This document shows positions 2,563-52,780 of a stretch of 64,000 bases of DNA, in pieces. Each line of letters opens with the position of its first letter. Position 1 is the first letter of the stretch. The DNA is from Eukaryota sp. TZLM1-RC (Eukaryota > Protista > Metamonada: BaSk clade). A program made the position numbers and the translations under genes. The notes under the pieces were generated by a model. The model was not told the DNA's origin, did no database searches, and worked only from the letters and a program-made list of their open reading frames with translations. The stretch covers positions 866,881 to 930,880 of the forward strand of contig JAUPSS010000010.1 in the NCBI GenBank assembly GCA_040285825.1, in the 5' to 3' direction.

Positions 2563-2585
2563 TGCTCGACTATTTTTCTTGTTCA

Positions 2586-3776
2586 ATGAGAGTCGATGAA
2601 TCTAAATTGCTGGTGTGCTTCTGCGTTCCTTTCAGTTCCACAAACCGTTTGGGAAAATATGCTCTTGTTGCTTCTCGAATACTATTCACATTACTTGTAT
2701 TAGTACTCATTATTCTGTTCTTTTGCTTAATAGTGTTCTCTCCGCGTGGCGGATGGTTCTATCGCATTCCAAGGAAACAAAAACTGCAAGTGTATGGTGT
2801 GGATGATGAAGGGAACTTTCAATTGATTGATCTTGAACATAATTCTGTGATCAATGGCCATCTAGAAGAGGGATACCTTGCTCTGTCATTCCTCACTCAC
2901 ACAACTTCTTTTTATTCAGGCCATAAGCTGCCTTCATCCGTTCCTCGTTGGCTCTATGAAAATCTTGAATCAAAGACAGTGTGTGTTGTGGAAACTCAGT
3001 CCGAACCGTTACGTTTTCCCTCTTTGCTACAGGTGAATGAGTCATTTGATGTGGATTCGAATTCTTTTTTCCATCCATGCAGAAGCTACTCACTCAACGA
3101 TGACATGACATCTGATGATGTGTCACCAAGTACACAGAGAATAACACATGACTCAACATTACCTAAGTCTCTTATTGATGTCTGTTTGAAGAACGGTTTA
3201 ATCGTACAGTATAGGGTAAGTGGCCAAAGTCAATATAAAGTTCCAAATCATACATTTACCAGACAAAAACAAATCTCCAAAGAGCCCTTTGATACTCATG
3301 TTGACCGTTTTTGTGAAGATTTTATAACGCAAGAAAAGCTGTATGAAGCAGTTCAAAAAAGAGATGGTCAGGAAATTTTACGAGTTTTTGATTTTTCAAA
3401 TTTTCGATTTTTGGAAGTTCATGAAGATCATCATTATTTGACACACTATGATGAATTCAGTTTAACCAATCTTAGTGGGAAAAGGTTCACAATTGATCAT
3501 TCAGATGGATCATGTTCTTCCTCATCAGTGACCAATGGAGATGAACATGATCTGCTTTTAAAGAACATGTGGCTCAGTGATGAATATGAGTCAAAAAACA
3601 TAAATGGCATGAATTCTCTATGTTTTTCCAAGCACACTGGGAACAAATTGTGTGTTGATAAAGAACATGGTTATACGACGAAGCTGTGCATATCTTCTAA
3701 TTGTTCGACATTCAGTGAGCACAAAATTATTGGTGAGGATGATAATCGATTAAAAATCCCTCATTATTGTGAATAG
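2586..3776 (+). CDS. Hypothetical single-pass membrane protein
   Basis: Long ORF with first ATG at 2586 and a hydrophobic segment ILFTLLVLVLIILFFCLIVF. Confidence 0.65.
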   Translation: MRVDESKLLVCFCVPFSSTNRLGKYALVASRILFTLLVLVLIILFFCLIVFSPRGGWFYRIPRKQKLQVYGVDDEGNFQLIDLEHNSVINGHLEEGYLALSFLTHTTSFYSGHKLPSSVPRWLYENLESKTVCVVETQSEPLRFPSLLQVNESFDVDSNSFFHPCRSYSLNDDMTSDDVSPSTQRITHDSTLPKSLIDVCLKNGLIVQYRVSGQSQYKVPNHTFTRQKQISKEPFDTHVDRFCEDFITQEKLYEAVQKRDGQEILRVFDFSNFRFLEVHEDHHYLTHYDEFSLTNLSGKRFTIDHSDGSCSSSSVTNGDEHDLLLKNMWLSDEYESKNINGMNSLCFSKHTGNKLCVDKEHGYTTKLCISSNCSTFSEHKIIGEDDNRLKIPHYCE

Positions 3777-6925: not shown

Positions 6926-8027
6926 TGTTGTTGTTGAACTCAAATTGAATTAGTAGGTTTCTTTGTATTTCGACTGATGACGTGATACTCATTTATGAAT
7001 CAGTTTTAGTAATAAACTACAGATTTCTCTCTCTCCTTCGTGTGTTCATCTGCCTAACGGCATCAATAATTATTGGCCCTTCTTATTTCAGATGATTGTT
7101 CTCTCTGTTAACCTGACGTCTCTTTCTTCCATGAAAGTTGACAGTGTTCTTCTGTTCCTATAGGAGTGAAAGATTTATTCTTCGGTGACTCCTAAGAAAG
7201 AGCTTGTTCCAGCAAGACTCTTGGTCGATTCTTTTCTGTTAGAGTCCTATCTCTCCAGAAATCCGACGTCTCATCCAGTGACGATGTTCTTCTCAGACAT
7301 CTACAATCTGTCGTATCGTTCGTCACGTACAAAGATTTTAGTCTGGCTATGTCAGAACTGAAGCTTGATGTCCGTATTGGTGACGTCCGAGAACGCATGT
7401 CCTGTTACCTGCGACGTTTCCTCCAGGTAAAGAGTAGGGCTTCCGGACTGAAGTTGCCAGACATAGCTTTTCTGAACCGATTTGCCAGAGGAATTCTTCC
7501 CGTAGGTCTTCAACGTTCTCTACTAGCGAGAATTCGAGATGATGTATTCCCAGATCTTCACTCTCTTGTCGAAACCACTACTGATGAGCTGTTGGACTGC
7601 TCTAGGGTTGCTTCATGGACTCGTGGTTTCAAAACCTCAGTGAATGATGTGGAACGTACGGCTGGCACTAAAACGAGGTCCTCTTGCCGCTCTCAGGATT
7701 TAAAAAATCAATCGTGCTTCAAGTGCCACAAGCCTGGACACATCTCCCGTGATTGTCCATCTAAAATCAAACATGAGGTAAATTATTTGTGTCACACAAA
7801 CGATGCACCAAAGAGTTTAACAAACCCCATATCTTCCCTCTATTGAGCCAGTACTGTATTTGTCCTCAGAAAAGTGGGAAAAAGTAGTGTTGTTGTTGAA
7901 CTCAAATTGAATTAGTAGGTTTCTTTGTATTTCGACTGATGACGTGATACTCATTTATGAATCAGTTTTAGTAATAAACTACAGATTTCTCTCTCTCCTT
8001 CGTGTGTTCATCTGCCTAACGGCATCA
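6926..8027 (+). mobile_element. Non-autonomous gag-only LTR retroelement 2 (140-bp apparently identical LTRs, 4-bp TSD AAAT)
   Basis: LTRs 6926-7065 and 7888-8027 (TGTTG...CATCA). PPT AGAAAAGTGGGAAAAAGTAG. AAAT at 6922-6925 and 8028-8031. Removing it restores AAAGAAAAATGTATTTG as in other family A copies. Confidence 0.93.
7092..7846 (+). pseudogene. gag: Degenerate retrotransposon gag with CCHC zinc knuckle
   Basis: CFKCHKPGHISRDC knuckle in 7349-7846. Upstream part from ATG 7092 has TAG and TGA stops and a frameshift near 7260. Confidence 0.75.
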
Positions 8028-9061
8028 AAATGTATTTGTTCGAATTCACCTCAACTCACTTTGCGCCATGCTCTGAATTGTTCTAAAATGATAACTTATC
8101 GTTCTTCATTACATGATGCTGTTAGAGACACTGTTTTCAATATGGCTCAAACTGCAAGGATATCGTGTATCAAAGAGCCCCTGCTGAAGGAAACACTTTC
8201 TCTGAATAATTTTGGTTCTGATGATAGAGGTGATGTATACTGTAATAGGATTGATAATTCTGAAGCTATTGTTGACTTTGTCTCATGTAATGTTGCAAAT
8301 GATACTTTGGTTCACAGAAGAAAACTTAATCCTGTGGCTACTCTGGATTTTTAAGCAAAAGAGAAATATAGAAAATATGATAAAGATATTGAAGAGGCTA
8401 ATGTCGATAGAAATACACAGCTGGTTTTTATTGCTTTCCCATTTTCGATAAATGGAAGATTATCAGTTGCAGCAGAAACTTTTTTGGATGACTTCCAAAA
8501 AATGGTGCAAGAAAAAACAATGAAAAGATTTGATATTTTTTTATGGCGTTCACGGATTCAATTTGCCATTATTAATAGATTGCCACGTTTTTTCAATCGA
8601 ATAAGAGAAGCTTTAGCTAGACAGCAAGCATATCAAGATTTTGTAGAGGAAATCTTGGTTCAATGATAGTCGTCCCATTAGTTATGAGTTAATTTAATTA
8701 AGTGTGCAAATTCAATAAATACAGTTTTTTATTGTCCTTGAATACAGAGTTTCTGAACAAGTATTAAACGAAGTTATTGCTTTTGAACGTTCTAATTTAT
8801 ATACCCAGCGGAACAAATTGGATTTAAAAAAAGTTAAATGTATGCCCTGTAAGAATACAAAGTTTGTTTGCTACGTTTCGAAGGAGACATTCTTTCAAAA
8901 GATGATCTATTCCAACCATGGAAGAAGCTAAAAAGAAATGCTGAATAATTAGCTCATGAGTAAAATGAACCACCCTTCGACTTTCCAAAAGAACGAAATG
9001 TAATAATTGAATCAATAGAAAAAAGGTTGCTCCATCATTCAACAATCAAATCATTCAAAGC

Positions 9062-14747: not shown

Positions 14748-15632
14748 TTGTTTAATTGTTAAGAATTTTAACCTTTTCAGTTCCTTGTATTACTCATAGG
14801 TGAAGCTCACTCCAGATGGTAAACATCTGGTTGTGGAGAAAATGTCGCTTTTCAAGTGTTTTAACATGTTTTAGTGCATTGATATGGTGATAGAGGTGAA
14901 CGCTTTCAATATTCTAGGATGATGGAAAAAGTATTGATGATATTTTGCATTAGATAAAGCACCTTTTTTGACATAGTCAATTTATTTTTCCAATTGCGAT
15001 TCTTTTTTTCACAAATCAATAAGTTAGAACAAAATAGTTAAATCCTAAGATATTGGATATTATTATTGATCAGTACCTGCACTATTTTCTTTTCTTTTTC
15101 TGTTCTAGTTTGTTCTAAATGCCGTGCCCTAGTAGATAACAACCTGTTTTTGAATACGTTTCCCCTAATAATGCTTATGCTGAGGTTTGATTATTCAACA
15201 GTACGCCTTCATGTCATATGTGACTTTTGTCACAAACAATTCAAGAGCTTTCCCGGTAAGGTGGCTGACATCTAGTTGTCCAAAACCGTTGCTCCTTGAA
15301 ACTCTTCGACTGTTTAGGAAATCTCACAAACAGCGGTTCTTGTGATCTGTCCTATCCTGTTTAAATAAAGGTGTTTTGTTTCAATGGTTATAGTTTTAGT
15401 AGTTGGGGGGGGGGATCAACATAATCAATCACAATGAGCAATCAGTTAGTGAGTAACAACATTTGATGTGCTGAACACCACACTTCAATGTATTTCACAC
15501 TTACCTCCATGGGAAAAGTTCCGAAATTCTTGCTGATATTAATGTTTCATATTGTCAAACTGAATCAAATCTGATCTGAGAGGAAAATCAATCATTATTT
15601 TGATTCCAATTCAATTTTGTCTGTTCACACCA

Positions 15633-15938
15633 ATGGTCTCCTCTGAAGATCAGTTTGTATCTCTCTAGTTTAACGGTAGAATGCAAGCACAGTATCACCA
15701 TCATCACCAACAACTTCAACGAGCTCGTGAAGAACGTATGAGTAATGGACCACGTCCCTTTGGCACTCCTGAATATGTATTGTATGGTCTACCAATTATC
15801 GGGTTACTGTTTTTGTGGGCTAATTTTGATTACCACGATAACCGAGATGCCTCTGTTGCATGTAAAGCTTGTTTGCTTATACTTTGGCAAGTTGTTGTGG
15901 TTATATTAATCTTGTTCATTGCTGAAACCTTTTTCTAG
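15633..15938 (+). CDS. Small 2-TM protein (92 aa), one 27-nt intron (15653-15679)
   Basis: Same intron position and length as the paralog. Shared PFG....LYG.P.IGL.FLW.N...HD..D.SV..K.CL..LWQ motif. Confidence 0.72.
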
Positions 15939-16559
15939 GAAGGTTTGCGCTAAGAATAATCTATTTTGTGTTTGTAAATCTTTGATGTCCTAAGATGTCT
16001 AGTTTTTGGATCGCAAAACCACTTTTAATACCGTACGGGTTGGAGTTGAGGTAAGGTGTGCATTGTGTCAATTTTAACTGTTCAAGTGTCATCCGTAACG
16101 ACCTCAGCACCCACCGTGCAGGAGCTGTGGTTGTTGAAAGTGTTCAATAAATTCAATTAAAGTTCGCAGAACCAATGAAAGCCAGAAGTTTGAGGAAGTT
16201 TGAGGTTATAGTCATTTTCAACTTTATGTGCAACTTTATCTTGATAAATGGAATCTTTATTCCATATTGTTTATGGCCGTTTTATCAAAATGCAAAATTG
16301 AATTCTGTTGTTTTGTGAAAAGACGTGTTGCAACTTTCGTAGAATGACCAATGGCCAACCTATTGCAGTTGCTCATGCAAAGTTCAAAATACTCAAACTT
16401 GACTTTGTCGCCGATGACTGTGTTTTTCATTAGGTTTGAGTATCAAGAAAGAGCTCGAAGTCATGGAGACCCTTAAATTTGAAACACATCGTGAGTATTT
16501 TTCCTTTAAAAATATGTTTTGCTGGAAAAAGGCCCATTTATTTTAATCACTACCTCCAT

Positions 16560-17029: not shown

Positions 17030-18458
17030 TTGATTTGAATTTTGTCGATTTTTTAATGAACAAAGAACCAATTTTTTAGCAAAATTATTGGAAATTGATG
17101 CATTTCAGTTACGAAGCCACAGTTTTTATGGTACAAATTATGGTGGTGTCGATTTTTATAAATCAAGCTACCTTTGTGAAGCTGCCATTATTGGAGGCGG
17201 TAAAAACTTTATTTTTGTATTTGTGAATCGCTTTCCCAACATTGATTTCATTGAAAATTGTGGCAGCTTATGTCTTATTTCTTTGCAACAGGAAATTGAC
17301 TCTTTTTCACCAAATATTTGGTCTAAATGTTTTCCTTCTGATATTGTGGAACTTTCTTCAAGATACTTGCTCTCTTTGCGACTGACTTTTGCAAAATTGC
17401 ACGAAAATATTCTTAATAGTTTTAAAAAACATGGATTATATTGTATGTCTCAGCTTGGGTCAAGAAAAAAATCCCTTTTTTGCAAACTTTTTGATTGATC
17501 TTGAAGACAGTTGCTCAGGTTTCTTAATCTTTTAAATTTCCAACATTTACGGTGTTCTACTTAATGATCACCAATGGACCACTGCAATGAGAATGAGATG
17601 TTTCTTATGGCCATGTTCGTTACCAATGATTTAGTTTGTCGCTGCAAGAGTGTGGTTACGCTTTCCCATATTTTAAACTGCGAATGATGCCGTTAGGCAG
17701 AAATACCAAAAATGAAAAGAAGGAAAAGAACTTTATTAATAAAAATACTTGTTCTTGAACAAGTGCCACGTCATAATGTAAATTCCTCATCTGTCTACCA
17801 AGTTAGTTAATTAGTAACAACAACACAAATTTTGTATAACTTATTAATCAATTGTTCATGACTCAGTTCGTGATCAATTGTATGCCATGTTATGTAGTGC
17901 AAAACTTTCAATATAGAGGCATTTATTGAACCGTTCGTACGTAAGCTATCTCTAAATCAAACTGACGAGTCCTTTGATAAAAGAAGGGCAAATTCAGTAA
18001 CTCCAGGGATCGATTATGTTCTCAACGTTGTGGATGGTGTCTCAGTAAATGTGTGCAAAAATTCTGCTGCTCGTTTGGTGTATTCGGCTGTTTCGCCACA
18101 TGCTAATGCCAAAAAAATAAAAATATGAAGAAACAGTGGCACAGTTAGGTAGAGTGGAACATGTGAAATATCAGTTTGTGCCGTTTGCAATTTCTCTTTT
18201 AAGCAAAATTGGACTTTCAGGATTTCGTTTTTTAGAAAATTTCAAGACAGCTTTACTGAATGGATCTCGTAAAAAATGATTTCCACTTTCTGGTTAAATA
18301 AAAATGTTTTTTGCATTTTCAAGTCTATTCCAACAATGATTTCTGAAGCTCTTTTAGCTATTGGTGTAGAATATGAACAAAATGCTGTGAGTAGGTTTAG
18401 TATTAGTGACGCTTGTTTGGAGGATATTGAATACTAGATAGAATTGTATTTCAATAAA
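17030..18458 (+). mobile_element. Degraded CRE-like retrotransposon family C, 5'-truncated, with solo LTR insertion
   Basis: NYGGVDF..SSYLCEAAIIGG thumb, WTTAMRMR, CRC...HILNC, VHDSVRD, FVPFAIS. Ends TTCAATAAA. Confidence 0.75.
17685..17825 (-). mobile_element. Solo LTR related to LTR element 2
   Basis: Reverse complement starts TGTTGTTGTT and ends TCTGCCTAACGGCATCA like LTR2, 141 bp. Flanks CGAA/CAAA form a 4-bp TSD with one mismatch. Removal restores NCKFCITY. Confidence 0.85.
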
Positions 18459-18622
18459 AATACAGTACAAACAAAATAGAGCACATTTTTTGACACGGAA
18501 ATCAAACAATCTAATTTTGCAATTCCCATTCCACTGTTTAACAGAATAATAAGTTTGAACAAAATAGTGAAAATCAGTATTGGATATCTGTGGAGAACTT
18601 TTTCGATTCCAATTCATTTTTG

Positions 18623-18931
18623 GCTGGTCTCACCAAGAGATCACTTTTTATCACTCTAGTTTAACAGTAGAATGTAAGCACAATATCACCATCATCACCA
18701 ACAACTTCAAGGCGCTCGTGAAGAACGTATGAGTAATGAGTAATGGACCACGACCCTTTGGCACTCCTGAATTAGTATTGTATGGAGTACCAATCATCGG
18801 GTTACTGCGTTTGTGGGCTAATTTGGATTACCACGAAAACAGTGATGTATGCATGCACAGCTTGTTTGCTTATACTTTGGCAAGTTGTTGTGGTTATATT
18901 AATCTTGTTCATTGCCGAAACCTTTTTATAG
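18623..18931 (+). pseudogene. Pseudogene copy of the 15633-15938 small TM gene
   Basis: High similarity to 15633-15938 and its downstream flank. Start codon and 5' splice site are mutated; CAA>TAA change and indels. Confidence 0.8.
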
Positions 18932-20312
18932 GATGAGTTGGTCCAGGAAAATCTATTTTGTGTTTGTTAATGTTTCATATCCAAATTTGTCTAGTTTTTG
19001 GATCACAAAACCACTTTTATAACCACTATGGTCTACATTATGACAATTGTGACTATTTAAGTGTCATCTGTAATGACCTAAACACCCATCGTGAAGGTGT
19101 TATAGTGGTTGAAGGAGTTAGAGAAATTTAATGGAAGCGCTTCTTTTGATAAACGCAGAACCAATTAAAGAAAGAAGTTCGGAAATTTGGTTGAATAATA
19201 GTGGAGTTATCAATTCCTTTGCGTTTGGAAATGCTGGTTCAATAATGAAATCGAAATACTTACAGGCCATGAAACCAATGACAAAACCATTTGTTCTGAT
19301 AACCTCACTTTAATCAGACGACATATCACTAAATGTACTCACATATAATAGGTGTATTTAGGTACTTATTCTACAAATGAATTTGGCAAGTGATTGTATC
19401 TACCAAAACGTAAGGGATCTTGTTTTTTTTCCAAAAAAATTAATTTATATAAAGCGAATAGAAACCCTCTAATATCAGCCAACCTCTTGCTAATTCAACA
19501 ATTGGTATCCAATACAGCTTTTTATCATTTCATCAAACAAGTTTCATTCTAAATCGTGAATAATGAAAACAAATAAACTGGATTAGACCACAAAACATCC
19601 CAACCAAAAGCACTATTGGGTTTTGAAATCTGCAAAGTTTTTCATACCCAAATACATTTACTGTTTGTAGGTGATCAATAGAATAACTTACTCCTAACTT
19701 ACTTTTTTCTGGTTTCTTCGCAAATCCCAACCGATGTTTTTGTTGAAGACAGAAATGAGTGAACTACCGCTGAGTTACCTTCACAATTGTTCAAAGCTTC
19801 ATTACATAAAGGTTTATTACTTTTTGGCACTCTTTTCAATATATTTTTATAAAAAACCAACACGACATACAAGGTTTACGATCATTAATAACAATAGTGA
19901 AAATACTATGAACCACTATTATAAAATCCATATTATAGAACCCTTCAAATTTGGTGGCTTTGTTATTGAAAGGAAACAAGATTTTCCTTTTCCAGGCTCT
20001 GAAGATTACCGTTGATACGAATCATTAATAAGTAATTAGTGATCCAACCATTTCAAACAAACAGAAATAAATTCTTTAATAGTGTTTTTGGAGTGAAATC
20101 ATTTAATAAAAACAATCGCAGTTACAAAATTTTACGAAATATGAGTTTTCATCAACTAGTCTTCAATTAAAGATTATCAGTTGTGGAAAATTGTTTGGAC
20201 AGGGCAAGTAGACCAGCATGTCTGGTTTAGAAGAGTTTTAGTTTTGTTTTGTGTTTCCCATCAGCTAACAACAATTTTTTAATAGATTTAGACACATTCA
20301 AAATTTGTAGTT

Positions 20313-22538: not shown

Positions 22539-24475
22539 CTACAAATCTCTTACACTTTGAAATCTAACACCAAACTCAGTAATTTCTGTAACATTAATCT
22601 CATCATGATCTACCTTGTGGTGAACAAAAAACTGCTGACCACCAAAAACATTACCCATACTAACAATGGTCAATAGTTTTCCACCAATAGAAAGATAGTC
22701 TGCCCAAGAAGCTCCATCACCCATCTCTAAAGCTCCACAACAAATAATACAATCATACAAACGACCACTTTCGTCAATGGAATCACCAACATGTTCTTCA
22801 TTCTCCATGTCTTCCACCAAGGAAGTATCAATGCGATGTTGAAAGGGAATATCATTACAACGTTCTCTGTTGATATCAATCAATTGTTGGCTTCCTGAAA
22901 ATAAATGGACAAACCCATTTAGGCCAACCAGCTGGCAGATCAAAGCCAAGATATAACCGCCCTTTGCACCAATCAACGCAACAGAATGTCCCTGTTCGAT
23001 TGAAACAAGTGAAAGTTGGACCGCTATAATCTCTGGGGAACTCTCATTGCTTATGGGAGTGGCAGGAATTGGCCTACAAGGGTCATAACTCATATCAATG
23101 GCTGCTTCGTCATCACAATCATTAGCTCGTGGTCTGAGGTGAGTTGATGGTAGATGACAAACCTATATAGGTATAAATGGCGAGGAACATGGGTCATTGC
23201 AGTGAGAACAGTATCCAAAGCCATTGAGCCAAAATGAGAGGACCTGATAGCTTCAACCATTGACACCCTTGCCTCTTTTGAATTGAGCAACTCCTTGTTG
23301 TCGGGCCATTGGATTGAAATGGTAGGATAGTTAGTGGGGTTTTGACTTTCAATCAACATTCCTGCTGGAACTCTGTTAATTCTACCACGTGCTCTTCCAT
23401 GTGCTTGACTTGGCTGGGATGGTGATGATAACTGTTGGAGGCATGATTCGAATTCATTGAGTTTCGTCCTCTTATCTGGATCAGCATCCATTCCTCTTTC
23501 AATCAGTGGTCTTAGTGATTCTGGTACTGATTCTGGAATGACTGGCCTCTTTCCACTGGATACCAACATCATGACTTGCATCATGTTGGCTGTTGGAGAC
23601 CCTTCAAAGTAAGGCTCTATACCAGAGAAAAGAAAGATTAGCACATTTGAGACTGAATAAACATCAGATTCGAGAGTTAAATGACCCATACCCGGATTGA
23701 AAAGCTCAGGCGCTGCATATTTTACCGTAAACTGGGAACTAGTGTTAGTTCTAATTGTGTGAATAATCTTTGAAGTTCCAAAATCTGCAATCTTTGGAAT
23801 CCACTTTCCTCTATCATTCTTCTTCATCAACACATTCTAAGGTTAGGGTAGGGTTAGGCTTAGACAAACTTCTGGTTTGACATCCCGATGAACAATGTTC
23901 CGGGAATGGAGAAACAACATTCCTGATATGATTCCCTGAGCTACATGGAGCTTTTCCGTGTCTGTAAGGTTTACTTCGTTGAGAGTAGCATCGCAGAGTT
24001 CCATTACAATTCCCATTCTTTTGTTGTGAGTGATGACACCATAGACTTTGACAATGTTGGTACAATTGAGCCCAATGGCTAGATTCACCTCACGTTGAAA
24101 CTTCTTGAGGAGATCTTCCTTGTTGTTAGAGAAACGGAGTAGTTTGACAGCGACCTTTGTACCATTATAGTCTGCTTTATGGACATCTGCGAAGGAACCT
24201 TGGGAAAAGGCATCTGGTTCAATAGAGATTTCGGCGGGAGAGATTTCTGGAACCTGATTAACAGATTTAGTGATAGAAGAGGCAATTCGCATAAGTTCGA
24301 TGTTAGGGATGGGAGATGCAAGGAGATCACAGCGGTAAGGACATTTGCTCAGACTTGGAGAACATGTGGAGCAGATACAATGTCCATTAGCACAAACAGT
24401 TAATGGTTTACGATCATTGTCATTGAATGACTCTGCACATATTGCACAATCTAAGGAGAATTGGGACTCTGCCAT
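22539..24475 (-). CDS. RING finger - TKL-like protein kinase - PIMT(PCMT)-like fusion, 624 aa, 3 exons (24475-23870, 23836-23163, 23133-22539)
   Basis: RING CAIC...C..GH..CSTC...CPYRC. Kinase QGSFADV, VAVK, HRDVKPE|NVL, DFG, APE. PIMT-like AMTHVPRH...VALIGAKGGY...YDCI...GGKL...VRF. Two GTTTGT...YAG introns give a continuous 1875-nt frame. Confidence 0.85.
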
Positions 24476-24580
24476 GAGTTACAGATGATGTCTATAACAA
24501 TGAAATAAGTGTCCTTTTGTAGAGGGACTGAATTTTTGGAAAGTGGAAGATTTTCTCCTTGATACCTTTTTCTTTGAACC

Positions 24581-25691
24581 TTAGTCAACCTTGATTCTCT
24601 GCAGGTATCCTGGTCTATCTCCACCTTTTACATGTGCTTCCCACACTGCCAACATATTCAGCGAATCATTTCGATTGCTATTCCACAAACCTTTCGCATG
24701 ATTTACACATGGTAAGCCCGTGACGAATAGACATCTCATGCCTCTTCCATGGCCTAGGATTTCTGCACCACCGGAATGTTTCAACTGTCTTCCGAGCTTT
24801 CTTACAGTTGAATCAACAGCAACTGGTTCAAAACTCTTCAATCAAAAAGATCTTATAACCAGCCTTTTTAAATAGAATTCTCAACTCTTTTCCTTTGGTA
24901 GTTTCTTTGAATTTCATGTGTTTTTGTTGTTCCCAGTCTCTGATTCCGACAAGTACTTGAGCTGAATCACCAATTTCTGATTTGAATCTCAGAATCATCT
25001 TCGCCTCAGATGTTTTGCGATTAATCTCAGCCCACCATCTTGTTTCCTAAATGTTTTTGATGATAGACTTCACCAACAATACTATTCACAAAATTGTTCT
25101 GTTTAATATACTCCATAAGTCTATCAAACCTGTAGCTTTTGGAATTGAATTGGGATAAAGCTGCATGCCATTCTTCTACAGATTTAGTTTTTTTGTTTAT
25201 TGTTACTCAAATTTAATGAGTAATCAATTTCGTGGGGGAATATTGATATCTTGAGGTACTTCACCTCTTAATAAACTACTTGTTCTTTCAGTCATTTGAT
25301 TGATTATAATGCTGCTTAAATCCATTCTTTGTTGTTGCTCTTCAGATGGTTCATAATTGATTCCTTTTTGATAAAACTTTTGGAACAAGTATTTCTTTTA
25401 AGTGTTGGCGATAGAATTCCAGCAATGGCGCACAACGAGAATTTTGCAAAGCTGTTTTTGTCTTTGCGTTTAGGGAACTTTGCTCCTCACTTTGAGACGT
25501 GACCACATGAAAAGCGGCACAAAAAGATTACGTTTTAATTTTTTGAACAACATCATTAGGGTTTTAGTCACAAAGATGCAAATAATAACTACAACTGAAT
25601 ATTGAACCAACAATAGAAATTGTTGACACCAAATTACTACCTCAGCGATCACGTCAAGCATTTTCGGATCTCTGATTACATTTCTTAGACT
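24581..25691 (-). pseudogene. Fanzor1 (TnpB-like RNA-guided nuclease), internally deleted and frameshifted
   Basis: Reconstructed C-terminus: FRKQRWWAEINRKTSEAKMI...GIRDWEQQKHMKFKETTKGKELRILFKKAGYKIFLIEEF*TSCC*FNC...FRWCRNPRPWK...HGLTMCKSC..LWNSNRNDSLNM...GGDRPGYLQR. N-terminus: SLRNVIRDP...LLEFYRQHLK. Confidence 0.85.
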
Positions 25692-26520
25692 GTCATCACC
25701 ATCAGAAGATTTATATTTTACGGTTTCGATGAATTGGACATTATTAAATTTCTTTAATAGTTTCATGGTTAAATCGGTATCCCTCAGATAATAAACTGCA
25801 ACTACAGTTCTTCTTTGGGATAAGGAAAAATCCAAGAAGGGATCATGTTCTTAAAGCTTCCAATACTTTGCAATACACTGAGGATCAAGGTCAATTTTAC
25901 TTTCCCTAATATAAATTTAGAAAATGTTTTTAGTTTGTGCTGTAGGTAATAAATTGCGTCAACACTACAAGTATCAGCAACCGATTGACCAGCGATTGAA
26001 AGGTTCAAGTGTTTGTGATTCAATTCTATTAAATTTGAGTTATAGTATTGAACCCATTCACTAGCATGGATTTCACCCTTAAAAAAGTCCTCATTTTCAG
26101 AATATTTCACAATATGTGGGATGTTAAATTTGACAATATTGAAACCAAATATTATATGAAGATTATAAGTTTGTAATAGTTTTTTAAAAGAACTAAGCAA
26201 TTCTTTGTCAGAGGTATGATGATATAAAGTGTTATTGTTATTATCAACTGTGCCATATTGTTCATTTCAGCTTGTTGACTTTTCTACAAGCTCAGAAAAA
26301 CAAAGATTTAATTCAATGTGTTCTCGAGTAAAAATATGAATAACAGCATTCGCAACAATCTTCCTTGTAGATTGAAAGTAAGAGATGGAATGTTCTCTTG
26401 CAGAAAAGACAATTTTTTCATCGTCATCACTGAGCTTTTTACCCAACACCAAAGTTTCAATATCAAAATGTAAAATTCTGAGAGTAAATTGTGTTTTGAC
26501 ATTTGATGGTGTCACAAAAA
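25692..26520 (-). pseudogene. Family-B DNA polymerase-type 3'-5' exonuclease domain (no polymerase domain)
   Basis: ExoI ILHFDIET, ExoII ELLSSF...IIFGFNIVKFNIPHI, KIDLDPQ, ExoIII RRTVVAVYYLRDTDLTMKL. Confidence 0.8.
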
Positions 26521-26729
26521 GGTTTTTATATCGAGTCAGTGGATTCTCATTGAACGGGGTTTCACACGTTTCAAACGTGTGTTCAATAACGTGTGCTCGC
26601 CTTCTTCCGATGGTTTCATGTACAGAGGAGTATATCTTCGTCTCAATCGATTTTCGTTCATTGTCATCACAGCTATGAAAACATCTTTTGTCTTGATTGA
26701 CAAAATGTTTAATATGAGCTGAATCAATT

Positions 26730-27110
26730 GAATTGAGTTGATTTTACAAATACAAATTGATCATTCTTTTTGCAAACAATATGGTGAATATTGCACAATC
26801 GTACAAATTAGATTGAAAAAATTCAGATAAATTCTGTCTGATATTAATTCCAAGTTTTCCAAAAATTGTTGGATTAATTTTTTGATGTTGTTCTCAATTG
26901 TGACGAAGACTATCAAAAAGAAAAACTTTTGCTGTTCTGGATTTTCAACAAGTACCCAATGTTGAATTGCTCGTTAACAGATACAATCAACTTTGATTGA
27001 TGAAATGCATCATAATGGGGTAGAAGAATTATTTGTCTAATGATGTAAAAATGGCAAGAAATGTTTCATTTGTGTAATTTTTGGAATCCCGAATTTTGTT
27101 TAAACTATAA
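26730..27110 (-). pseudogene. Ulp1/SENP-like (clan CE) cysteine protease remnant
   Basis: HWVLV (26947-26961), VFLFDSL and QSNLYDCAIF (QSNLYDC at 26795-26815) in the expected catalytic order H-D-Q-C. Confidence 0.7.
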
Positions 27111-27111
27111 T

Positions 27112-27605
27112 TTCTTGAACAAGAATTCTGTCTAATATTCAATATCCTCCAGACAAGCGTCACTATTACTAAACCTACTCACAGCATTTCGTTCATATTC
27201 TACACCAATAGCTAAAAGAGCTTCAGAAATCATTGTTGGAATTTACTTGAAACTGCAAAAAACAATTCTATTTAACCAGAAAGTGGAATTCATTTTTTTA
27301 CGAAATCTATTCAGTAAAACTGTCTTGACATTTTCAAAAAAAAGCGAAATTTTGAAGGTGCAATTTTGCTTAAAAGAGAAATTGCAAACGGCACAAACTG
27401 ATATTTCACATGTTCGTTTCTACCTAATTGTGTCAAAGGTTCTTCATATTTTTATTTTGTTTTTATTTTTTTTTGACATTAGATAGTGGCGAATTAGCTG
27501 AATACATCAAACGAGCAGCAGTATTTTTGCACACATTTAATAAGACACCATCCACAACGTTGAGAACATCATCGATCTCTCGAGTTACTGAATCTGCCAT
27601 TATTT
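27112..27605 (-). mobile_element. CRE-like family C 3' fragment
   Basis: Reverse complement closely matches about 17960-18455. Confidence 0.8.
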
Positions 27606-29594
27606 TACGAAAGGACTCGTCGATATGATTCAGATAGAGCATCCAATTCTCTGCGTGATTTAAGATAGCTTAAATCAGCAACTTCGGAAAGGTAGCTATA
27701 CTGATGATGAGTTATAGCAGGAAGTACTAACTTCACTAGTGGCGTGGGTAATTGTTCTATGTACAACTCATAATCGACTCTCAAAGACTTGAGACTTGAT
27801 AAATGTGCCAAGTTTAGGGGAAATCCACCAGATTTACATCTACCATCAAGCATAACAACCTCAAGGTTTGGGAAAAATGACAACAGTTGTGGATCATAAG
27901 GAACATTATCATAATAAACATCAAGATTTCTAATTCTAGTATTAAGTACCTCGGGAACATAGTGAAAAGTAGACAATCGCAATTGTAAAAAAACAAATAT
28001 CTTCATTTAAATTTAAATCTTGAGGATCTTTTAAAAACAGCTTATTGTGAATTGGGTGGGCAAGGTACACTTCATTAGCAAATTTGAATACTCTGCTACT
28101 AATTGAACTTTTGGTAAGGAACCTGGCCCTTGTGTAAGGGTGCTGACCAAACAAGTTCTTCAAATGATTCAAATATTCAAAGTAGATTAATTTGATAAGA
28201 CAACTGAACAAGGTACCCACAGGTTGGTTCGGACAATTAAAACTTCCAAAAATGTCGGAACCACAAATTTTGACAGGTTGAGGTCGATCAATCAGATCAC
28301 CTGTACCTAATTGACCTCTATCATTCCTTCCCCGGGCCCAAACAGTGTTTTTGTTGTAAGCAAAAAGGAAGTCATTTCCTACAGAAATGCCTTCTATACT
28401 AGTGAAGACTTCAATACAACCTGGTTCATTACGCAGACGTTCTTCATACCCTTCACTAATTAAACCCAACCTACCCCATACAAAGACCTTGCCATTGGTA
28501 TCAATAGCAGCATTGATACCAATCCCTCCAGAACTACTAAGATAGCCACCAACTGTCACAATTTCATTCAAACCTTCAAGTTTGGTGGGCTCACTGTTCG
28601 AGAATTTCCAAAGATTACCATCATTATCAATAACGAATAGTTGCACTGTAACACCAAGACAAGTTCTTTTTCGCACACTTCTTAAAATCTTTTTGTATGC
28701 TACAATCAATAAAACTGAATCTTTAAACGGTTGTTTTGGAGTTATGTATTGAGTAACTGGTATCTTTGTTACATGATTTCTGTCCCAAAAAATGAAATCA
28801 CCATTACCGTCAACAGCTACAAAAAGATCATGATCAACAGCAAGGTACACAACATCATCCAACCCTTCAAGTAACTCAAATGATTTTCTGTTTCCCCATT
28901 GAACAACTTGACCTTCTTGGGTCAGTGCAAATGAACAGCGTTCACCACCATAAACTTCCTTAACACTATAAGGAATGTTTATAAGGGTGATTGGAAGTGA
29001 AGTAATGCTTGACATATCAATCTGCTTATCATCATTACAACCCCAACCATATAACTCACCTTCAGAAGAGAGGGCAAAGGAATGGAGACTACCAGTTGAA
29101 ATGGAGACGATGTTGTTCAAGGGTAATTTGATTGGTGATTTGATTGCTCTGAGTTCGTTATAAAAAACTTGACCTGAATCATTATAACCCCACCCATACA
29201 CCTCACCAGAATAGGTGAGAAGAAGAGAGTGTCCATAGTTGCTGGAAATGCATTTGACTCCATATTTTGGATCCGACCGATCGGAAAACGAGCAATGTCG
29301 TTCCCTGTACATAACTGAAGGAGGCGAGCTTGAATGAGGAGGAGAGGAAGCATCATGAAGCATGGATGATTCTCCTTCAAAAGGTTCTTGAAGAGGAGAT
29401 GATTCACTGGTTTCCTGGACAGGAGCAGAGGAAACAATGTACGACTGTTGTGTAGAATTGAAATAGAAATGGTTACTGTCTGATTGATTGCAACATGGAG
29501 TGGCAGACATTGAGCATTGGTCATGGCAATCTAAATGGTGATGATACCTACATGAAGTGTCAGAGTTTTGAACATGAGCATCGTTGCGACTCAT
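27605..29594 (-). CDS. RCC1-repeat protein with C-terminal LRRs; frameshift in a T7 run near 27990, 3' end cut by a retro fragment (possibly pseudogene)
   Basis: HSLLLT.SGEVYGWGYN..GQ and GRNDRGQLGTGD RCC1 repeats. LRR-like FPNLEVVML and LSSLKSLRV in the shifted frame 27605-28006. Confidence 0.7.
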
Positions 29595-29689
29595 TGATGA
29601 ATTGTGGTTGAGTAAACTGTGTCTAGCAATGACTTACTGTAAAGTCGATTTCTTTTCTGCATATCTGACCTTATCTATCCTTTTCCTTA

Positions 29690-30494: not shown

Positions 30495-31157
30495 TTACAA
30501 TTCAGGCAGCCACTTCAACAAATTGTCTGTGTTCCTTGTAAAGGGATTCAGACGCATATGATGATAGTTGTAACCAGAACCACTGCTTTCTGAGGAATAC
30601 AAATCTACTGCAAAGTACATATTGTGAACTAAGCACTTGTAATTTCTAAATGAGTGCAACTTTCTTGAAGGTGTAAAGTCTACTTCATTTAACTGACCGT
30701 GCTTCAGGGAAAAGTATTTTGTATGAAGCATAGGACCATTGTCTACCTGTGCTTTGACTTCAAAAATAACGTTAGGATGATGACCTCTCCTTCCTAGTAG
30801 ATCGGTGAACGTGGAATCTCGTTCAAAACGTCTTGGGTTCTTCGGTTGCATTCTAGAACAGCATGGAAAAGTACTTGGGTACTTGCTATGGTCAACAGCT
30901 TCAATATTTAATGAACTGGGGGAAATCGTATCATTATAGCAAACCGAGAATCCAGGCATCATCTTCTCCTTGTACGTTGATAGACTGTCGGGCACTGGAT
31001 AGAATTCATGTATCTCATTGGTTTCAAAATCCACGATGACTGAACCGAATAATGCTGTTTTTGACTTTTGAACAGTGAGCGCAAGGCCCTTGTCAGTTTT
31101 CATACCTTTTCGTTCGCAAAAGGAGCGAACGACGTCAACTACTTCAGTCTCAGACAT
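30495..31157 (-). CDS. Hypothetical protein (220 aa)
   Basis: ATG-initiated ORF with coding-like composition; no family recognised. Confidence 0.55.
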   Translation of the reverse strand: MSETEVVDVVRSFCERKGMKTDKGLALTVQKSKTALFGSVIVDFETNEIHEFYPVPDSLSTYKEKMMPGFSVCYNDTISPSSLNIEAVDHSKYPSTFPCCSRMQPKNPRRFERDSTFTDLLGRRGHHPNVIFEVKAQVDNGPMLHTKYFSLKHGQLNEVDFTPSRKLHSFRNYKCLVHNMYFAVDLYSSESSGSGYNYHHMRLNPFTRNTDNLLKWLPEL

Positions 31158-32207
31158 AGTAATTACTCAATAGACGCACTTCTATTTGTCATTTCATTTG
31201 AAATCTGAGAAGACTTTGGACGAATCACTGTAGAATGCATCAGTCACTGTATGTCAATAAGATTAAATTTGATTTCTAAATATGAAATTTAGAGGAAATG
31301 TCAATTTGACCATTTTGGTCATTTTTGCATTTTTTAAGACACACTGCTTTTACACATTCACTGAATCTTACACGGAAACAGCTAAATGTTCATTGGCCGA
31401 TGGAATTATTGCATCTACTCTGGTTTCGACAAAAAGGATTTAAAAACTTTTTTTTTGATTCGATCTAATACTTTGATCGATGAAGCACAATATTATACAT
31501 CAAAAATGATGAAAAGCATGTAGTAATCTTTTGATCAAGTAGACAAATTAAAAGCAATAAAAGTAACTGTGAACGAGAAGTCATTTGCCTTTTACCAAAG
31601 TTTAATATTAATAATATTAATAATTTTAATATACTTTCGACGTGTAATTTGATAAAAGAGAGTTAATTGACACAAATTGTCAGATTCAAGAACAAATGTT
31701 TGTTGTTAGTCCAATAATTCATATTTGTCAATTCAAACAATTCAGTGCTTTCAAATTTGTTGAAGAAAATGAGATGCGCTTATATTGTGTAATTAGGGTT
31801 TTACATTGGTTAAATGGAATAGAATTAATTTGTTTTCAAGACTCATTAGGCCGATTAACAAGAAAAAATAATACACAAATCAATAATGTTGGTGGATGTA
31901 TGGCTTAACAATAATTAATGAGTTATTATAGTAGTAAGGCTTTGTATGTTTAATTATCAATAAATATTAACTGTGACAAACAACAGAAACAAAACAAGTT
32001 GTCTACCTATTTGAGGAACATTGAATTCTGTAAATAGCAATAACTGTATTCAAATTAATCATAATGAAAAAAAAAGATATTAAATTAACAAATTAATTAA
32101 CACTGTCATAAAGGTGTAAATAACAAGCTCCTGATCATGGTCCAATTAAATGATGTAGAACAACATCAACAAACTAAATTAACCCTAACAATTAACTCAA
32201 ACCCTAA

Positions 32208-40563: not shown

Positions 40564-41350
40564 TAAGATTTGAATTGTGTGCCACTAATGAAGCATTTGT
40601 AACAAAAATGAGATTATATTTGAATATCCCCATTAATCAATTATTATCTAAAGAAAAATGTATTTGTTCGAATTCACCACAGCTCAGTTTGCGCCATGCT
40701 ATGAATTGTCCGAAATTGATAACTTATTGTTCTTCATTACATGATGCTGTTAGAGACACTGTTTTCAATATGGCACAAACTGCAAGGATATGGTGTATCA
40801 AAGAGCCCCTGCTGAAGGAAACACTTTCTCTGAATAATTTTGGTTCTGATGATAGAGGTGATGTATACTGTGATTGGATTGATAATTCTGAAGCTATTGT
40901 TGACTTTGTCTCATGAAATGTTGCAAACGATACTTTGGTTCACAGAAGAAAACTTAATCCTGTGGCTGCTCTGGATTTTAAAGCAAAAGAAAAACATAGA
41001 AAATATGATAAAGAAATTGAAGATGCAAATGTCGATAGAAATACACAGCTGGTTTTTATTGCTTTCCCATTTTCGATAAATGGAAGATTATCAGTTGAAG
41101 CAGAAACTTTTTTGGATGACTTCCAAAAAATGGTGAAAGAAAAAACAATGAAAAGATTTGATATTTTTTTATGGCGTTCACGAATTCAATTTGCCATTAC
41201 TAATAGATTACCGCGGTATTTCAATCGAATTAGAAAAGCTTTAGCTAGACAGCAAGCAGATCAAGATTTTGTAGAGGAAATCTTGGTTCAATGATTTTCG
41301 TCCCATTAATAATGAGTTTATTTTGTTAAGTGTGCAAATTCAATAAGTAT
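40564..41350 (+). mobile_element. CRE-like family A 3' fragment (zinc finger + REL)
   Basis: Near-identical to the 3' part of the other family A copies; one internal stop. Confidence 0.88.
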
Positions 41351-42112
41351 TAATAATAAATAAATAACAATTATATTCTCTAGTTGAAAAAATGAAATAT
41401 AAATGAAAAAAATTCACCAACCATCTCAATATCGAATAGGCACAACAATACGAATTGATTATTTTTTGTTTTCATTTTTTTTGAATCATACAAACGAATT
41501 AATACGATGACATTCAGTAGCAGCCGCTGATTGAAAGTTACTCTCTGTCCTTTTGAAGTTAAATAATCATTCGCTTTCAGAGTCGTCAAAACAAATGGTT
41601 TTGGTGCTTCAAAAAGTTATAAATATGGATAATCATATTGAAATATAACTGGAGGATTGGTTTTTACCTCTTAATTAAAAAAGCAAGAAATTACCACAGA
41701 TGACATCAAAAAATTACTTGAATTTCACTGAACATAATACGTCTTGGAAAGACTTCAAAGACTTAAAATGTACTGTGATCAAAAAGGACACCGAGTGAGA
41801 CTGCTGCCACAGCATGTGGACTTCCGTTATTCTGATATAAATAAGCTTGGTAGATAATCAAATTTTTTCCTGGTCTTACATTAAATTAAAGTCAAGTTTG
41901 CAACAATTTTGGTAAAGATTGCGTACTTAATTGATTTAATTCAATATATAAAGCAAGTAGAGAAACCTTTATAAAAGTTCTTTAGACATATTTATTTATT
42001 TATTCTTAAAGATTGAAAAATTTTGCTGTAAAGAGCCTCAAAAGAAAAAAAATAAATTAATCATTAAAATACACCAAAATCGCAATAATTTACAACTAAA
42101 TATACAAAAAAA

Positions 42113-46743: not shown

Positions 46744-48575
46744 ATTTATTGGAATTTTTATTTATTTTCTACGAAGAATCAAATAAAAACAAAACAAACT
46801 AAAACACATAAGAAACTAAATTCTCCACGCCAACTCTTAATGAATCCTTATAAAGTTTGGACATCATTAAACTCAAGTACTTGGGAACACTTCTGTACAA
46901 AACGAAAATGATACGATTTTTCCATAAATTCTCTGCAAAATTCTTACCACTTGAACGACATAAATTACCAAAATCATTGATGAAATTCAAGGCGGATTGT
47001 CCAATGTTGCCAAAAATTGAAAAGGCAAAAGGAACAAACGAAAACTTCGAATGAAGGTTCTTATTTAAATCATTTAATATCTCAGTATATTTATCTCTGA
47101 TACGATCTTCAGCCTTGTTTAAATGACCATTAGTACTAAGTAAAACATCATCACGATAAACAAAAGCAAAGGGATCAACTGTAGTGAAATCAACAACAAC
47201 TTGAGAGGAATCCACAAAAGGAGCAATTAAATCACCTCGACGTGAATTAAACAGATTATCATCACTATAATGCTTCAACAAAGGTTCTACTTTGCAACTA
47301 AAATTATAACACTTGAACATCTCATATGTCACATCACGAACGGCATTATGAAGAACTGACCTATATTGGAGAAATTTCTTACAGCTCACAATATGACGGA
47401 AATTGGCAGTAGGTTTTTTGTTACAAATACAATAAGAATTGTCCAAAAGACCACTTGGATACATCCCTAATCTCAACCGCATATTTTGTTTCCAAGCTTC
47501 ATTTGTTAAGTGAAGACCAAATGGCCTTGGTTGCTGAGATATTAAACCAGTACAGTTCTGAATGTCTGATAAAAAGGCAGCAAAGACGGGATTATTAATC
47601 TTAGTCACACTAAGTCGTTTGATAAAATCCAGGTCTTCAAAACCAATAAGAACAGACTTCTGTAATTTCACAACAGCAAGATGAAGATTGGTGAAAGATC
47701 TCAAAGGCACAGCAGGCAAACTTGAAGGAAAACTCCTATTCCAAATATCAACATGTAGTTCTTGCACCATTTTTTCAAGAGAAATTAATAAAGGATGTGA
47801 TTCAATTAAAGGAATATGATCAAAACGAAGTTTCCATTCAAAAAGAAAATTTTTCATACCAACAATAAAAGCACTTTTGCATAAATACTCTGCTTTTGAA
47901 AAACCAACTCCACCAAATTTAGGACTAAAAAATGCATGATAAGGAATTTTAGATGGACAAACTTCTACTAAATTTCCTAAGAAATTTGTTCTCAAAGTAT
48001 TGAATTGACGTGCAAAATCATGAGAAATTGTGGGAGATAAAGAACGAAGAAGATGATTAATTTTTGATCCAAAACACACATTTAGGACCGAAAACGCTAA
48101 ATGTTTGTCAATTTCTAGATCTTGAATAGCCAAAAGTTGCTCTTCGATTTTTTCCAAAATACCTGACAAAATCGATTTAACTTTTTCACTATTTCCAAAA
48201 TAAGATCCAAGAAACCGAATAGCATCTTCCTCGTAATCAACGTATTTGATAAAAGTTTCATTAAATGCCACCACCGCATGCTGATTACCAATAATGAAAC
48301 ACTTGGGCAATTTAATGTCTAACCCTATTTGTTTGGCCAGAAAAACAAAATGTTGTAACCCGTGTTGTAAAAGAGACAAAGGGCCGATAAGTGATAAATC
48401 ATCTGCATAAGCACATATATGAATGTCAGGAAAATCCGACTTAAATTTTACCAAAACTGATTGCAGTGCTAAGCAAAAGAAAAATGGACCCAATGGATCC
48501 CCTTGTTTGACGCCTCTTGACGAAACAATATTCTCAGAATGAAAAATTAAGTTAGAGGGTGATCCATACATCAAT
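46744..48575 (-). mobile_element. CRE-like non-LTR retrotransposon family B, 5'-truncated but with an open 591-aa RT-ZnF-REL frame
   Basis: GVKQGDPLGP, YADD, FLG, FGGVG, CIC...HIVSC, HNAVRD, VEP, RRGD, VDFT, FVPFAFS. Ends TTCCAATAAAT. Confidence 0.92.
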
Positions 48576-48740: not shown

Positions 48741-48846
48741 ACAGATAATAATCACAGAACAAATAATTACAATAAAAATAGAATAATACCATTTTCAATA
48801 ATCTTTATTGAACACCCTCAAATTTAGGGGCTCTTCATCTTACATC

Positions 48847-50598
48847 ATGCAACTGTACCAGTCCTTTTCTGAGGTAATTGCTACGCATCTCTGTCATGAG
48901 ATTGAAGCCCCTGTGGTTGTTCGTCTCTTGTCCGATCCCCAAAACATCCCTTCATTTGTTTCCATTATTAAACAAGCATTCCAACAGAGTCTTACCCCCA
49001 CCCAATTCAAAAACATTTATCGTTTCTGCTCAATTTTTGCTCCACAGCTCCCCCCTGCAACTATCTCCTCTCTCCTGGAATCACTCTCATTCCTTGCATC
49101 CTCCTCCAAAGTTGCTCACGTGACCAAATCATTAGAACTTATTTCTTCTCTCATTCCCAATAACCCACCTCAACTCACCCTCCCTCCCGATCTTCTTGAC
49201 TTTACTCTTGAAGCTCTGTACGACGGCTACCTCACCGCTATTAAAATCCTTGGAAAGCTTAATTATACTGATCATCTAATTGAATTCGCCCCTTCTATAC
49301 CTTTTGATTCCCCAACACACCTTGACCTTATCCCTTACATAGGGAACTCCATGACTTACCTCACCCACCCTATCTCAGAGTTTAGGAAGCTTGCATGTGA
49401 TTTATTTGAGCCAGAGGAAGAGTTTGTTGACGAAGTTTATTCTATTCAACACTGTTTTGGGGAAGTTTTTATTAAACCCAGGGTTTATTCAAGTGTATAT
49501 TCGCCAATATTAATTAATGGTTACTTAAGCGAAGATGATTTGGCCCAATTAAATATTGCTAATTTTGAAGGTGATTTAATACCAATTGTGGAAAATGTTT
49601 TTTCCGAGTTTAATTTAGATAATTTTAATATATTTGAATTTGTGAATTTTGTCAATATTATTTTGCCTAATTTTGATTCTTTTGGAGTCAATGTGGTTTT
49701 GCAGAATTTAAAGAACAAGGTATTTCCTATCATTAATTCGTTTAATGAACCAAAGCAATTGTTGTATTTCACGAAATTATTCTGCTCGAAATTAATTTCT
49801 GAGGATGTAGAGTTAATTACACAACTAAAAGAAGTAATTTATAAGCTATTACCAACAAATTCTTTGGAGTTACAATTAATTTCCCTGATTTATTTAATTC
49901 CGTTCGAGGATAATATTAAAGATATTTGGGCGAATACTGTCTCTGAAATTGATTTTGATGATCTATCAGAACTGCAATCACTTTTGATTGTTACCTTTGT
50001 TCGTGATTATGCGAGGGTCAAAAAAGAATTGATTTTAGAAGAAAGTGTTCTATTAAACATCCTTCATCCACATTTTATTATGAACAACTTAATTTGTGAT
50101 TTATTAGTGTTGCTAAATCTTCAGCATGAAGTTGAATTTCTATCATTTATGACTCTAAATTCTGTTCCGCAACAATTAACAGAACCAATTCCTTTTTTCA
50201 AAGATTATTTATTTGTTAAACACAAAGATTTAAATCAATTTTTGTTTTCTTATCTTAATTCTAGAAAGAATATTATTGCTGATTTATTTGAATTAATTTG
50301 CAATCAAATTGATGGTGAAAATTGCTTGGTTTTACGCAATTTATTTAATTATTTACCTTTATTAACTGATATTGATGCAGAAAGTTATTCAAATTGTGTA
50401 GCAATTCTTTTTAAATCTTTGTTTGATTCATTTGAACTCATAGGCAAGGAAGTTTTCTTGTCTATTTTGAAGGAATTAAAGATCAAATCTATTGATTATG
50501 ATTTAAAGACGCAATTAGTCAAAAAATTGGGTTCGTTTGGGCTTAACAAAACAGATTTAGGCTCAGTAGACAAGGTCTTGAATAGTGTTTTTGAATAA
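48847..50598 (+). CDS. Hypothetical Leu-rich helical protein (583 aa)
   Basis: Long ORF, first ATG 48847; no family recognised. Confidence 0.65.
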   Translation: MQLYQSFSEVIATHLCHEIEAPVVVRLLSDPQNIPSFVSIIKQAFQQSLTPTQFKNIYRFCSIFAPQLPPATISSLLESLSFLASSSKVAHVTKSLELISSLIPNNPPQLTLPPDLLDFTLEALYDGYLTAIKILGKLNYTDHLIEFAPSIPFDSPTHLDLIPYIGNSMTYLTHPISEFRKLACDLFEPEEEFVDEVYSIQHCFGEVFIKPRVYSSVYSPILINGYLSEDDLAQLNIANFEGDLIPIVENVFSEFNLDNFNIFEFVNFVNIILPNFDSFGVNVVLQNLKNKVFPIINSFNEPKQLLYFTKLFCSKLISEDVELITQLKEVIYKLLPTNSLELQLISLIYLIPFEDNIKDIWANTVSEIDFDDLSELQSLLIVTFVRDYARVKKELILEESVLLNILHPHFIMNNLICDLLVLLNLQHEVEFLSFMTLNSVPQQLTEPIPFFKDYLFVKHKDLNQFLFSYLNSRKNIIADLFELICNQIDGENCLVLRNLFNYLPLLTDIDAESYSNCVAILFKSLFDSFELIGKEVFLSILKELKIKSIDYDLKTQLVKKLGSFGLNKTDLGSVDKVLNSVFE

Positions 50599-52509: not shown

Positions 52510-52772
52510 TAAAGTTCTCGTTTGACTGCACTTGTCAAGAATTCAAAATTGGATCTTCGTCTTATTGCGGTCTCTGAAAGCATACATAATTTTTGTTTCT
52601 GCTTGTTGCTTAAACAGGTTCAATGGAAAAACAAAAACGATTTTGTTGCCGTTCCAGCACGGAATTAATATCACTGATGGAGTTTCTTCAACTATATTTG
52701 CTACAGATGTATTATTTCATCAAAATGAATCCAATATTGGAATGTTGTTGGATTTTAGTAACGCCTTGAATT
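52510..52772 (+). mobile_element. CRE family A RT N-terminal fragment in inverted orientation
   Basis: SRLTALVKNSKLDLRLIAVSE and LLPFQHG..TDGV...LDFSNALN; matches 54710-54840 on the other strand. Confidence 0.75.
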
Positions 52773-52780
52773 AATATTAT

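Follow-up and report, generated by a model that had tools for sequence, protein, structure and literature searches.

Remnants of a likely protease and a polymerase-type exonuclease ahead of a Fanzor1 nuclease in a decayed protist element

Known Fanzor1 proteins are stand-alone nucleases of ~600-870 amino acids (aa), represented by structures of SpuFz1 (PDB 8GKH, 9CEU-9CEZ), PpFz1 (9CF0-9CF3) and GtFz1 (9CER). For SpuFz1 the RuvC catalytic residues are given, and its cuts fall after base 16-17 of the non-target strand and after base 20-21 of the target strand (PMC10432273). OMEGA systems are proposed to cut the empty site, after which the element is restored by recombination, and for Fanzors this homing role is inferred chiefly from bacterial TnpB (PMC13565253). 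Here, we describe a decayed Fanzor1 element in a stretch of 64,000 nucleotides (the window) from the protist Eukaryota sp. TZLM1-RC (contig JAUPSS010000010.1, positions 866,881 to 930,880). In this element, remnants of a likely Ulp1/SENP-clan protease and of a family-B DNA polymerase (PolB) proofreading exonuclease precede the nuclease. This three-part architecture of Fanzor1 is apparently undescribed and is found in several decayed copies of one protist lineage.

Three domains in a dead copy

We observed that the protease, exonuclease and Fanzor parts follow one another on the minus strand, and translation bore out the order, strand and coordinates proposed in an earlier note on this DNA. Catalytic residues and stops were positioned by counting by hand from the translated window. 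The extent given in that note, 24581..27110, stands apart from its edges: upstream, homology begins at ~27029, and downstream the TAA at 24581-24583 is premature, because the open reading frame (ORF) of a sister protein, P0004, continues to ~24517. Further sister sequences came as contigs from runs X1 and X2 of one sample, which are short and of low depth.

The Fanzor1 C-terminal half (24517..25358, minus strand) comprises RuvC-II, the zinc finger, RuvC-III and a basic tail and is 81% identical to P0004. It matched 693 proteins at E<=0.001, and Fanzor1 structures were the only significant structural matches for the window (SpuFz1 E 5.8e-10, PpFz1 E 8.8e-10), for the sister protein P0155 (E 3.2e-21) and for P0007, a relative from outside the family (E 1.5e-41). 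The Fanzor1 identity proposed in the earlier note is thereby supported. On a Fanzor profile of 660 positions, built from 69 full-length relatives, the window aligned in order but weakly to positions 16-127 and then from 435 onward. The first match corresponds to the N-terminal part (25366..25729, minus strand), which is fused in frame to ExoIII and has one frameshift near 25600. Because the profile match jumps from 127 to 435, ~330 codons (roughly 1 kb) including RuvC-I and the preceding region are missing, and we place this deletion at 25355..25370 on the minus strand.

The RuvC-II Glu lies at 24836, with a stop two codons further on, and the RuvC-III Asp has changed to Asn at 24676; all covering sister contigs (2 in X1, 3 in X2) read Arg-Asp at 24676-24677. 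With RuvC-I deleted and RuvC-III altered, the window copy lacks the RuvC triad. It is dead, as had been claimed, and its stops and frameshifts are more numerous than first listed. P0155 (381 aa) keeps the zinc finger and the full triad (Asp, Glu, Asp), which aligns to PpFz1 with the Glu just ahead of the zinc finger; its residues 1-129 have no counterpart in the window. PF07282 (OrfB_Zn_ribbon, a C4 zinc finger) scored above the cut-off in P0004 and P0155, and the window frame gave no Pfam match because of its stops. A family-specific insert of ~65-70 aa past the bridge-helix region (window 25230-25358; P0155 ~117-183) is not in the relatives' profile.

Ahead of the Fanzor part lies a family-B polymerase 3'-5' proofreading exonuclease with ExoI, ExoII and ExoIII (25730..26524, minus strand). 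A PolB-type exonuclease lacking its polymerase had been predicted, and PF03104 (DNA_pol_B_exo1) indeed matched across 26524-26105 with E 3.3e-8, above the cut-off. The ExoI Asp and Glu are at 26464 and 26458, the ExoII position is 26125, and the ExoIII Tyr and Asp are at 25793 and 25781. The ExoI and ExoIII residues are kept in the window, those of ExoIII also in the sister protein P0040, while the domain as a whole is far diverged from all PolB tested. The sole PDB matches of the exonuclease were weak ones to yeast Pol delta (E 0.22-0.53), and PolB matches were likewise weak in NCBIfam (exonuclease) and in ESM Atlas (P0040). P0001 and P0040 had no meaningful PDB match, and a structure prediction of the exonuclease part was unusable (pLDDT 32). 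The reading frame behaves as first described: ExoI and ExoII share a frame through one TGA (26269-26267), and ExoIII runs without stop or shift into the Fanzor start at ~25725. Two defects had been overlooked, a frameshift at ~25900 and a TAA at 25853-25851, both between ExoII and ExoIII.

No polymerase domain follows the exonuclease. Palm motifs, reported earlier as lacking, were found in none of the six frames of 24301-27700, where a loose pattern gave one chance match of 5 letters. Alignment to a viral PolB profile extends as far as the ExoIII helix and no further. The Fanzor begins ~20 residues past the ExoIII Tyr and leaves no spacer, whereas palm motif A lies 93-98 residues past this Tyr in the 3 of 5 viral PolB rows with the motif downstream; the join therefore falls at domain limits. 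With palm motifs A, B and C missing and the Fanzor directly after ExoIII, the element protein is not a polymerase.

Upstream of the exonuclease, a linker that possibly includes the end of the PolB N-terminal domain (26525..26746, minus strand) leads to a likely Ulp1/SENP-clan (C48) cysteine protease (26747..27029, minus strand), which is 5'-truncated and carries two 10-nt deletions (frameshifts) and one stop. Protease and exonuclease had been described as sharing one frame through one TAA. This TAA is present at 26746-26744, and the linker is in frame with both neighbours through it, but the protease His lies in another frame than the Asp, Gln and Cys, and there is an extra TGA at 26896. When the breaks were read as X, the protease-like residues (His 26961, Asp 26914, the oxyanion Gln 26815, Cys 26797) took up the order and spacing of a profile built from 82 viral C48 proteases (single-sequence E 5e-5). 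On the same profile the region scored best of 1001 when set against 1000 shuffles, narrowly, at 11.2 vs 10.1 bits. In sister contigs the letters deleted here are present and 26896 falls in a sense codon, which brings the protease motifs into one frame. A loose motif count was unspecific: of its 2 matches in the window, one, at +33719, was off-frame and due to chance. The protease is likely rather than certain and is the weakest of the three domain calls.

Sister copies and relatives outside the family

The closest proteins are five predicted genes of Eukaryota sp. TZLM1-RC, with distinct locus tags on three contigs. In P0040 (171 aa), one open frame runs from just after ExoII through ExoIII to the Fanzor start without stop or shift, and residues 131-168 correspond to Fanzor profile positions 5-42 (E 4e-6). 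Over two stretches P0040 shares 67% and 59% identity with the window, which marks it as a separate copy rather than an allele, and the shift and stop found in the window at this place are absent from it.

The contigs extend this picture. Short X1 and X2 contigs identical to the host flanks show that the organism is present in the sample, and contigs 80-95% alike to the window cover most of the element (24.4-27.0 kb). One 356-letter contig (~84% alike, 58 differences, 4 gaps) bridges 25490-25841. Across 26480-27130, where 14 contigs were aligned, the stops of the protease region are sense codons in the sisters (3/3 contigs at 26745, 2/2 at 26895-26896). Two sister contigs run past 27029 into sequence absent from the window, and likeness to the window ends at that position. 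Contig depth is greater toward the 3' end, but this does not measure copy number and was not read that way.

From these data we have little doubt that the exonuclease-Fanzor fusion is a family trait. The outcome that the earlier note named as refuting, a normal PolB polymerase domain behind the exonuclease with Fanzor as a separate gene, was not seen in the sisters. The single ancestral protease-exonuclease-Fanzor frame put forward earlier is supported in that every junction has at least one sister with an open frame across it. No single contig or record spans all three domains, so this ORF is pieced together from overlapping evidence, and we regard an ancestral ORF with all three as quite probable. 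The copy in the window is dead and truncated at its 5' end; it belongs to a multi-copy mobile element of the protist, and the ancestral gene likely encoded one protein of more than 1,100 residues.

Our survey took in the 80 best of 466 viral and the 80 best of 514 metagenomic loci, which together held 172 Fanzor ORFs. None of the 148 with a matched start had an N-terminal extension of >100 residues; one ORF (L087:978-3140) has an extension of 58 aa. Among 156 related proteins, 69 had a matched start and one was extended by >100 residues (P0140, residues 1-147: a Cys/His-rich N-terminal extension of 145 aa), with neither a PolB nor a C48 match. PolB genes occurred in 2/160 surveyed loci, by a profile built from them, and C48 genes in 6/160, all as separate ORFs. 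One viral record (G005:C1:37032-53050; loci L077, L161 and L166) holds PolB, Fanzor1 and C48 protease genes within 16 kb, each separate. At L081:5008-5892 and L157:5008-5892, an ORF of 295 aa stops 3 bases ahead of the Fanzor ORF; its start presumably resembles a GIY-YIG nuclease, as in PGv-1.

Outside the family, the closest Fanzors (53-55% over ~200 aa) come from giant-virus-type contigs, and no close relative was found in the viral contigs or prokaryote genomes searched. In a FastTree tree with local supports only, using 30 of the 80 viral loci, the family's Fanzor forms a long branch next to giant-virus-type sequences (local support 91). This placement hints at a viral donor, without showing one. 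The literature searched, which left outside bioRxiv supplements, Repbase and subscription journals, held no Fanzor fused to a PolB exonuclease or an Ulp1 protease. In the accessible parts of the supplements of PMC10530073 and PMC10432273, one scanned PDF apart, the searched domain names were absent. The element had been announced as a candidate new RNA-guided nuclease; its novelty lies in the domain architecture, within a nuclease family already known, and it does not stand for a new class of RNA-guided system.

A possible role in homing and its alternatives

We lean towards explaining the fused protein as one that promoted homing by an RNA-guided cut of the empty site combined with end trimming. 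An omega-RNA from the right end of the element would guide Fanzor to the allele without the element. A Fanzor1 cut 16-21 bases past the target-adjacent motif (TAM) would leave a TAM-side 3' end with ~16 bases of right flank, unmatched to the donor at the element boundary. As the cut would lie away from this boundary, an unmatched 3' tail would remain, which the tethered 3'-5' exonuclease would take off, after which a host polymerase would copy the element in. The enzyme that mobilised the element was probably supplied in trans or encoded by the 5' sequence now missing.

The protease, instead of cleaving the polyprotein, would likely act on host proteins of chromatin or repair and remove their SUMO or NEDD8. 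Proteases of the Ulp1/SENP clan cut at Gly-Gly, and neither junction has a Gly-Gly, in the window or in P0040. Host conjugates are therefore preferred as substrates, and the self-processing suggested earlier finds no support.

Polymerase proofreading has been linked to related processes. In phage T4 the proofreading exonuclease affects intron homing (PMC2988022), and in yeast the proofreading activity of Pol delta chews the invading 3' end back by <=40 nt (PMC10868807). A tethered PolB proofreading domain would fit the removal of an unmatched 3' tail, a role to which we give slightly less than even credence.

A number of observations weigh against this explanation. The ExoII Asp is Asn in the window copy and no sister sequence covers that position, so that exonuclease activity is not supported even by motif. 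In the study of yeast Pol delta, a proofreading mutant left the assayed pattern unaltered (PMC10868807). For the protease, 7 shuffles outscored the region on a 3-sequence C48 profile, and its single-frame fragments, split over three frames and truncated, had no Pfam match, including to Peptidase_C48, the family expected from the earlier note. The guide RNA is still a candidate and not demonstrated: in the window copy, 4/5 folds of the putative omega-RNA were no better than shuffles, the remaining one (z -2.0) included host sequence, and the region had no Rfam match. The left end is lost, and no terminal inverted repeat (TIR), target duplication or transposase was found in the window. A search for RNA records of the sequence gave none, a result that carries no information on expression.

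The sister copies raise further objections. All five named sister proteins are fragments of 142-381 aa, and in 26515-26906 the copies differ from one another without any excess at third codon positions (11/29, hand count), which is expected of dead copies, yet is no sign of selection. No intact one-ORF copy or full-length protein was found, by word-based and weak protein searches that covered 684-2000 aa for the Fanzor region, 301-2000 aa for P0040 and 131-419 aa for the protease-ExoI region. The word-based Fanzor-region search missed long relatives that the other Fanzor-frame protein search found. Gene calling may follow repeat masking, as in PMC11316075, and intact copies can then be hidden from protein databases.

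One alternative is that a Fanzor element once captured or entered pieces of protease and PolB genes and that the junk composite multiplied, the fusion protein never mattering. The fragmentary state of all known copies, the missing third-position excess and the restriction of the fusion to one lineage agree with such a passive origin. We nevertheless consider it unlikely, since both junctions keep the reading frame (1 in 9 by chance) and lie at domain limits with no spacer before the Fanzor, and since an exonuclease so far diverged from every PolB tested has still kept its ExoI and ExoIII residues.

Less likely still is a functional polyprotein with other jobs, in which the protease separates the proteins and the exonuclease trims transposon ends or the 3' end of the guide RNA. 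Viral proteases related to C48 process polyproteins, but the junctions lack Gly-Gly. PolB proofreading domains act on DNA, which makes the guide-RNA trimming raised in the earlier note unlikely for this exonuclease. Trimming of transposon ends would agree with DEDDh nucleases being accessory proteins of P and piggyBac transposons (PMC3627910), but stand-alone Fanzor1 relatives do without an exonuclease.

An origin from an endogenous giant-virus or Polinton-like segment, with deletions that brought adjacent protease, PolB and Fanzor genes together, is improbable, for although the nearest outside Fanzors sit on giant-virus-type contigs and one viral record has all three genes within 16 kb, the flanks are ordinary host genes (RCC1-repeat, RING-kinase, IFT140) with no viral gene among the 30 frames scanned, the copies are dispersed over contigs, and the viral PolB and C48 profiles match weakly.

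If the fused protein did act in homing, it would be a natural counterpart of engineered exonuclease-Cas fusions, with 3'-5' polarity, and would offer a ready-made nuclease-exonuclease fusion for editing. Capture of a tail-removing domain would likewise be natural evidence for the homing model. With no intact copy and a single protist lineage, these points carry limited weight. We raise tentatively the broader idea that Fanzors recruited end-processing nucleases on more than one occasion and that this lineage, with a replicative polymerase's proofreading domain and a SUMO-type protease, made a single homing protein able to cut, trim and de-silence, of which a young intact copy survives.

Setting of the element and comparison with known systems

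On the minus strand, the element is flanked on one side by an RCC1-repeat gene (ORFs 27605-29633) and on the other by a RING-kinase gene starting at 24475. The window is eukaryotic: 30 frames scanned against Pfam included IFT140, proteasome ATPase, RCC1-repeat, BTB, and RING and kinase genes as well as reverse transcriptases. Sister-copy cover drops within the bin 24388-24534, from which we estimate the right end at ~24500. The feature 24500..24580 (minus strand) thus contains this end, its boundary being an estimate only, together with a candidate omega-RNA scaffold overlapping the ORF end. As the ORFs of the sisters reach to about 24517, a guide scaffold, if there is one, has to share sequence with the coding tail. 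At 24517 two sister contigs have 8-9 extra letters which, judged by eye, complete a short variable-loop hairpin. The right end lies ~25 bases before the RING-kinase start codon (24475-24500), and the guide part of an omega-RNA would therefore cover the start of that gene.

On the other side, 63 unassigned bases separate the 27029 edge of the element from an unrelated repeat outside it (27093..27640, minus strand), which is 86% identical over 549 nt to 17945-18477. The repeat has no Pfam match, and its copy at 17945-18477 has no protease after it; by the likeness of its motifs, it is probably a non-LTR retrotransposon 3' end. Although 17945-18477 and 27093-27640 form an inverted pair, we do not read them as long TIRs, as the pair is coding-like with an A-rich end and has host genes between its members.

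Elsewhere in the window, a young reverse-transcriptase element family is present at 46799-48574 and 53869-54846 (copies ~95% identical). Reverse-transcriptase family repeats lie at 8027-8721, 40565-41359 and 52771-53564, with many short pieces sharing one common end. Coding-like sequence occurs in two inverted-free copies, 15598-16202 and 18601-19189, that are 78% identical. Frames of 223-598 aa at 30495-31166 (-), 2556-3776 (+), 48802-50598 (+) and 60733-61860 (-) had no Pfam match at E 0.1.

Compared with described systems, the family shares with known Fanzor1 the C4 zinc finger, the RuvC-III Arg-Asp and a multi-copy presence in a eukaryote genome. The RuvC Glu just before the zinc finger is also common to both (PMC10432273, PMC3627910). 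Its nearest nuclease-domain relatives outside the family, the giant-virus-type stand-alone Fanzor1 proteins (L001, L002, P0006, P0007), have no N-terminal fusion. With family-B polymerase proofreading domains (PF03104; Pol delta, T4 gp43) the element shares the ExoI-III layout. Those polymerases have palm, fingers and thumb, whereas the exonuclease described here lacks them, is owned by the element and is tethered to an endonuclease. In conclusion, known Fanzor1 proteins stand alone, whereas this family has two enzyme domains fused ahead of the nuclease in addition to its own insert.
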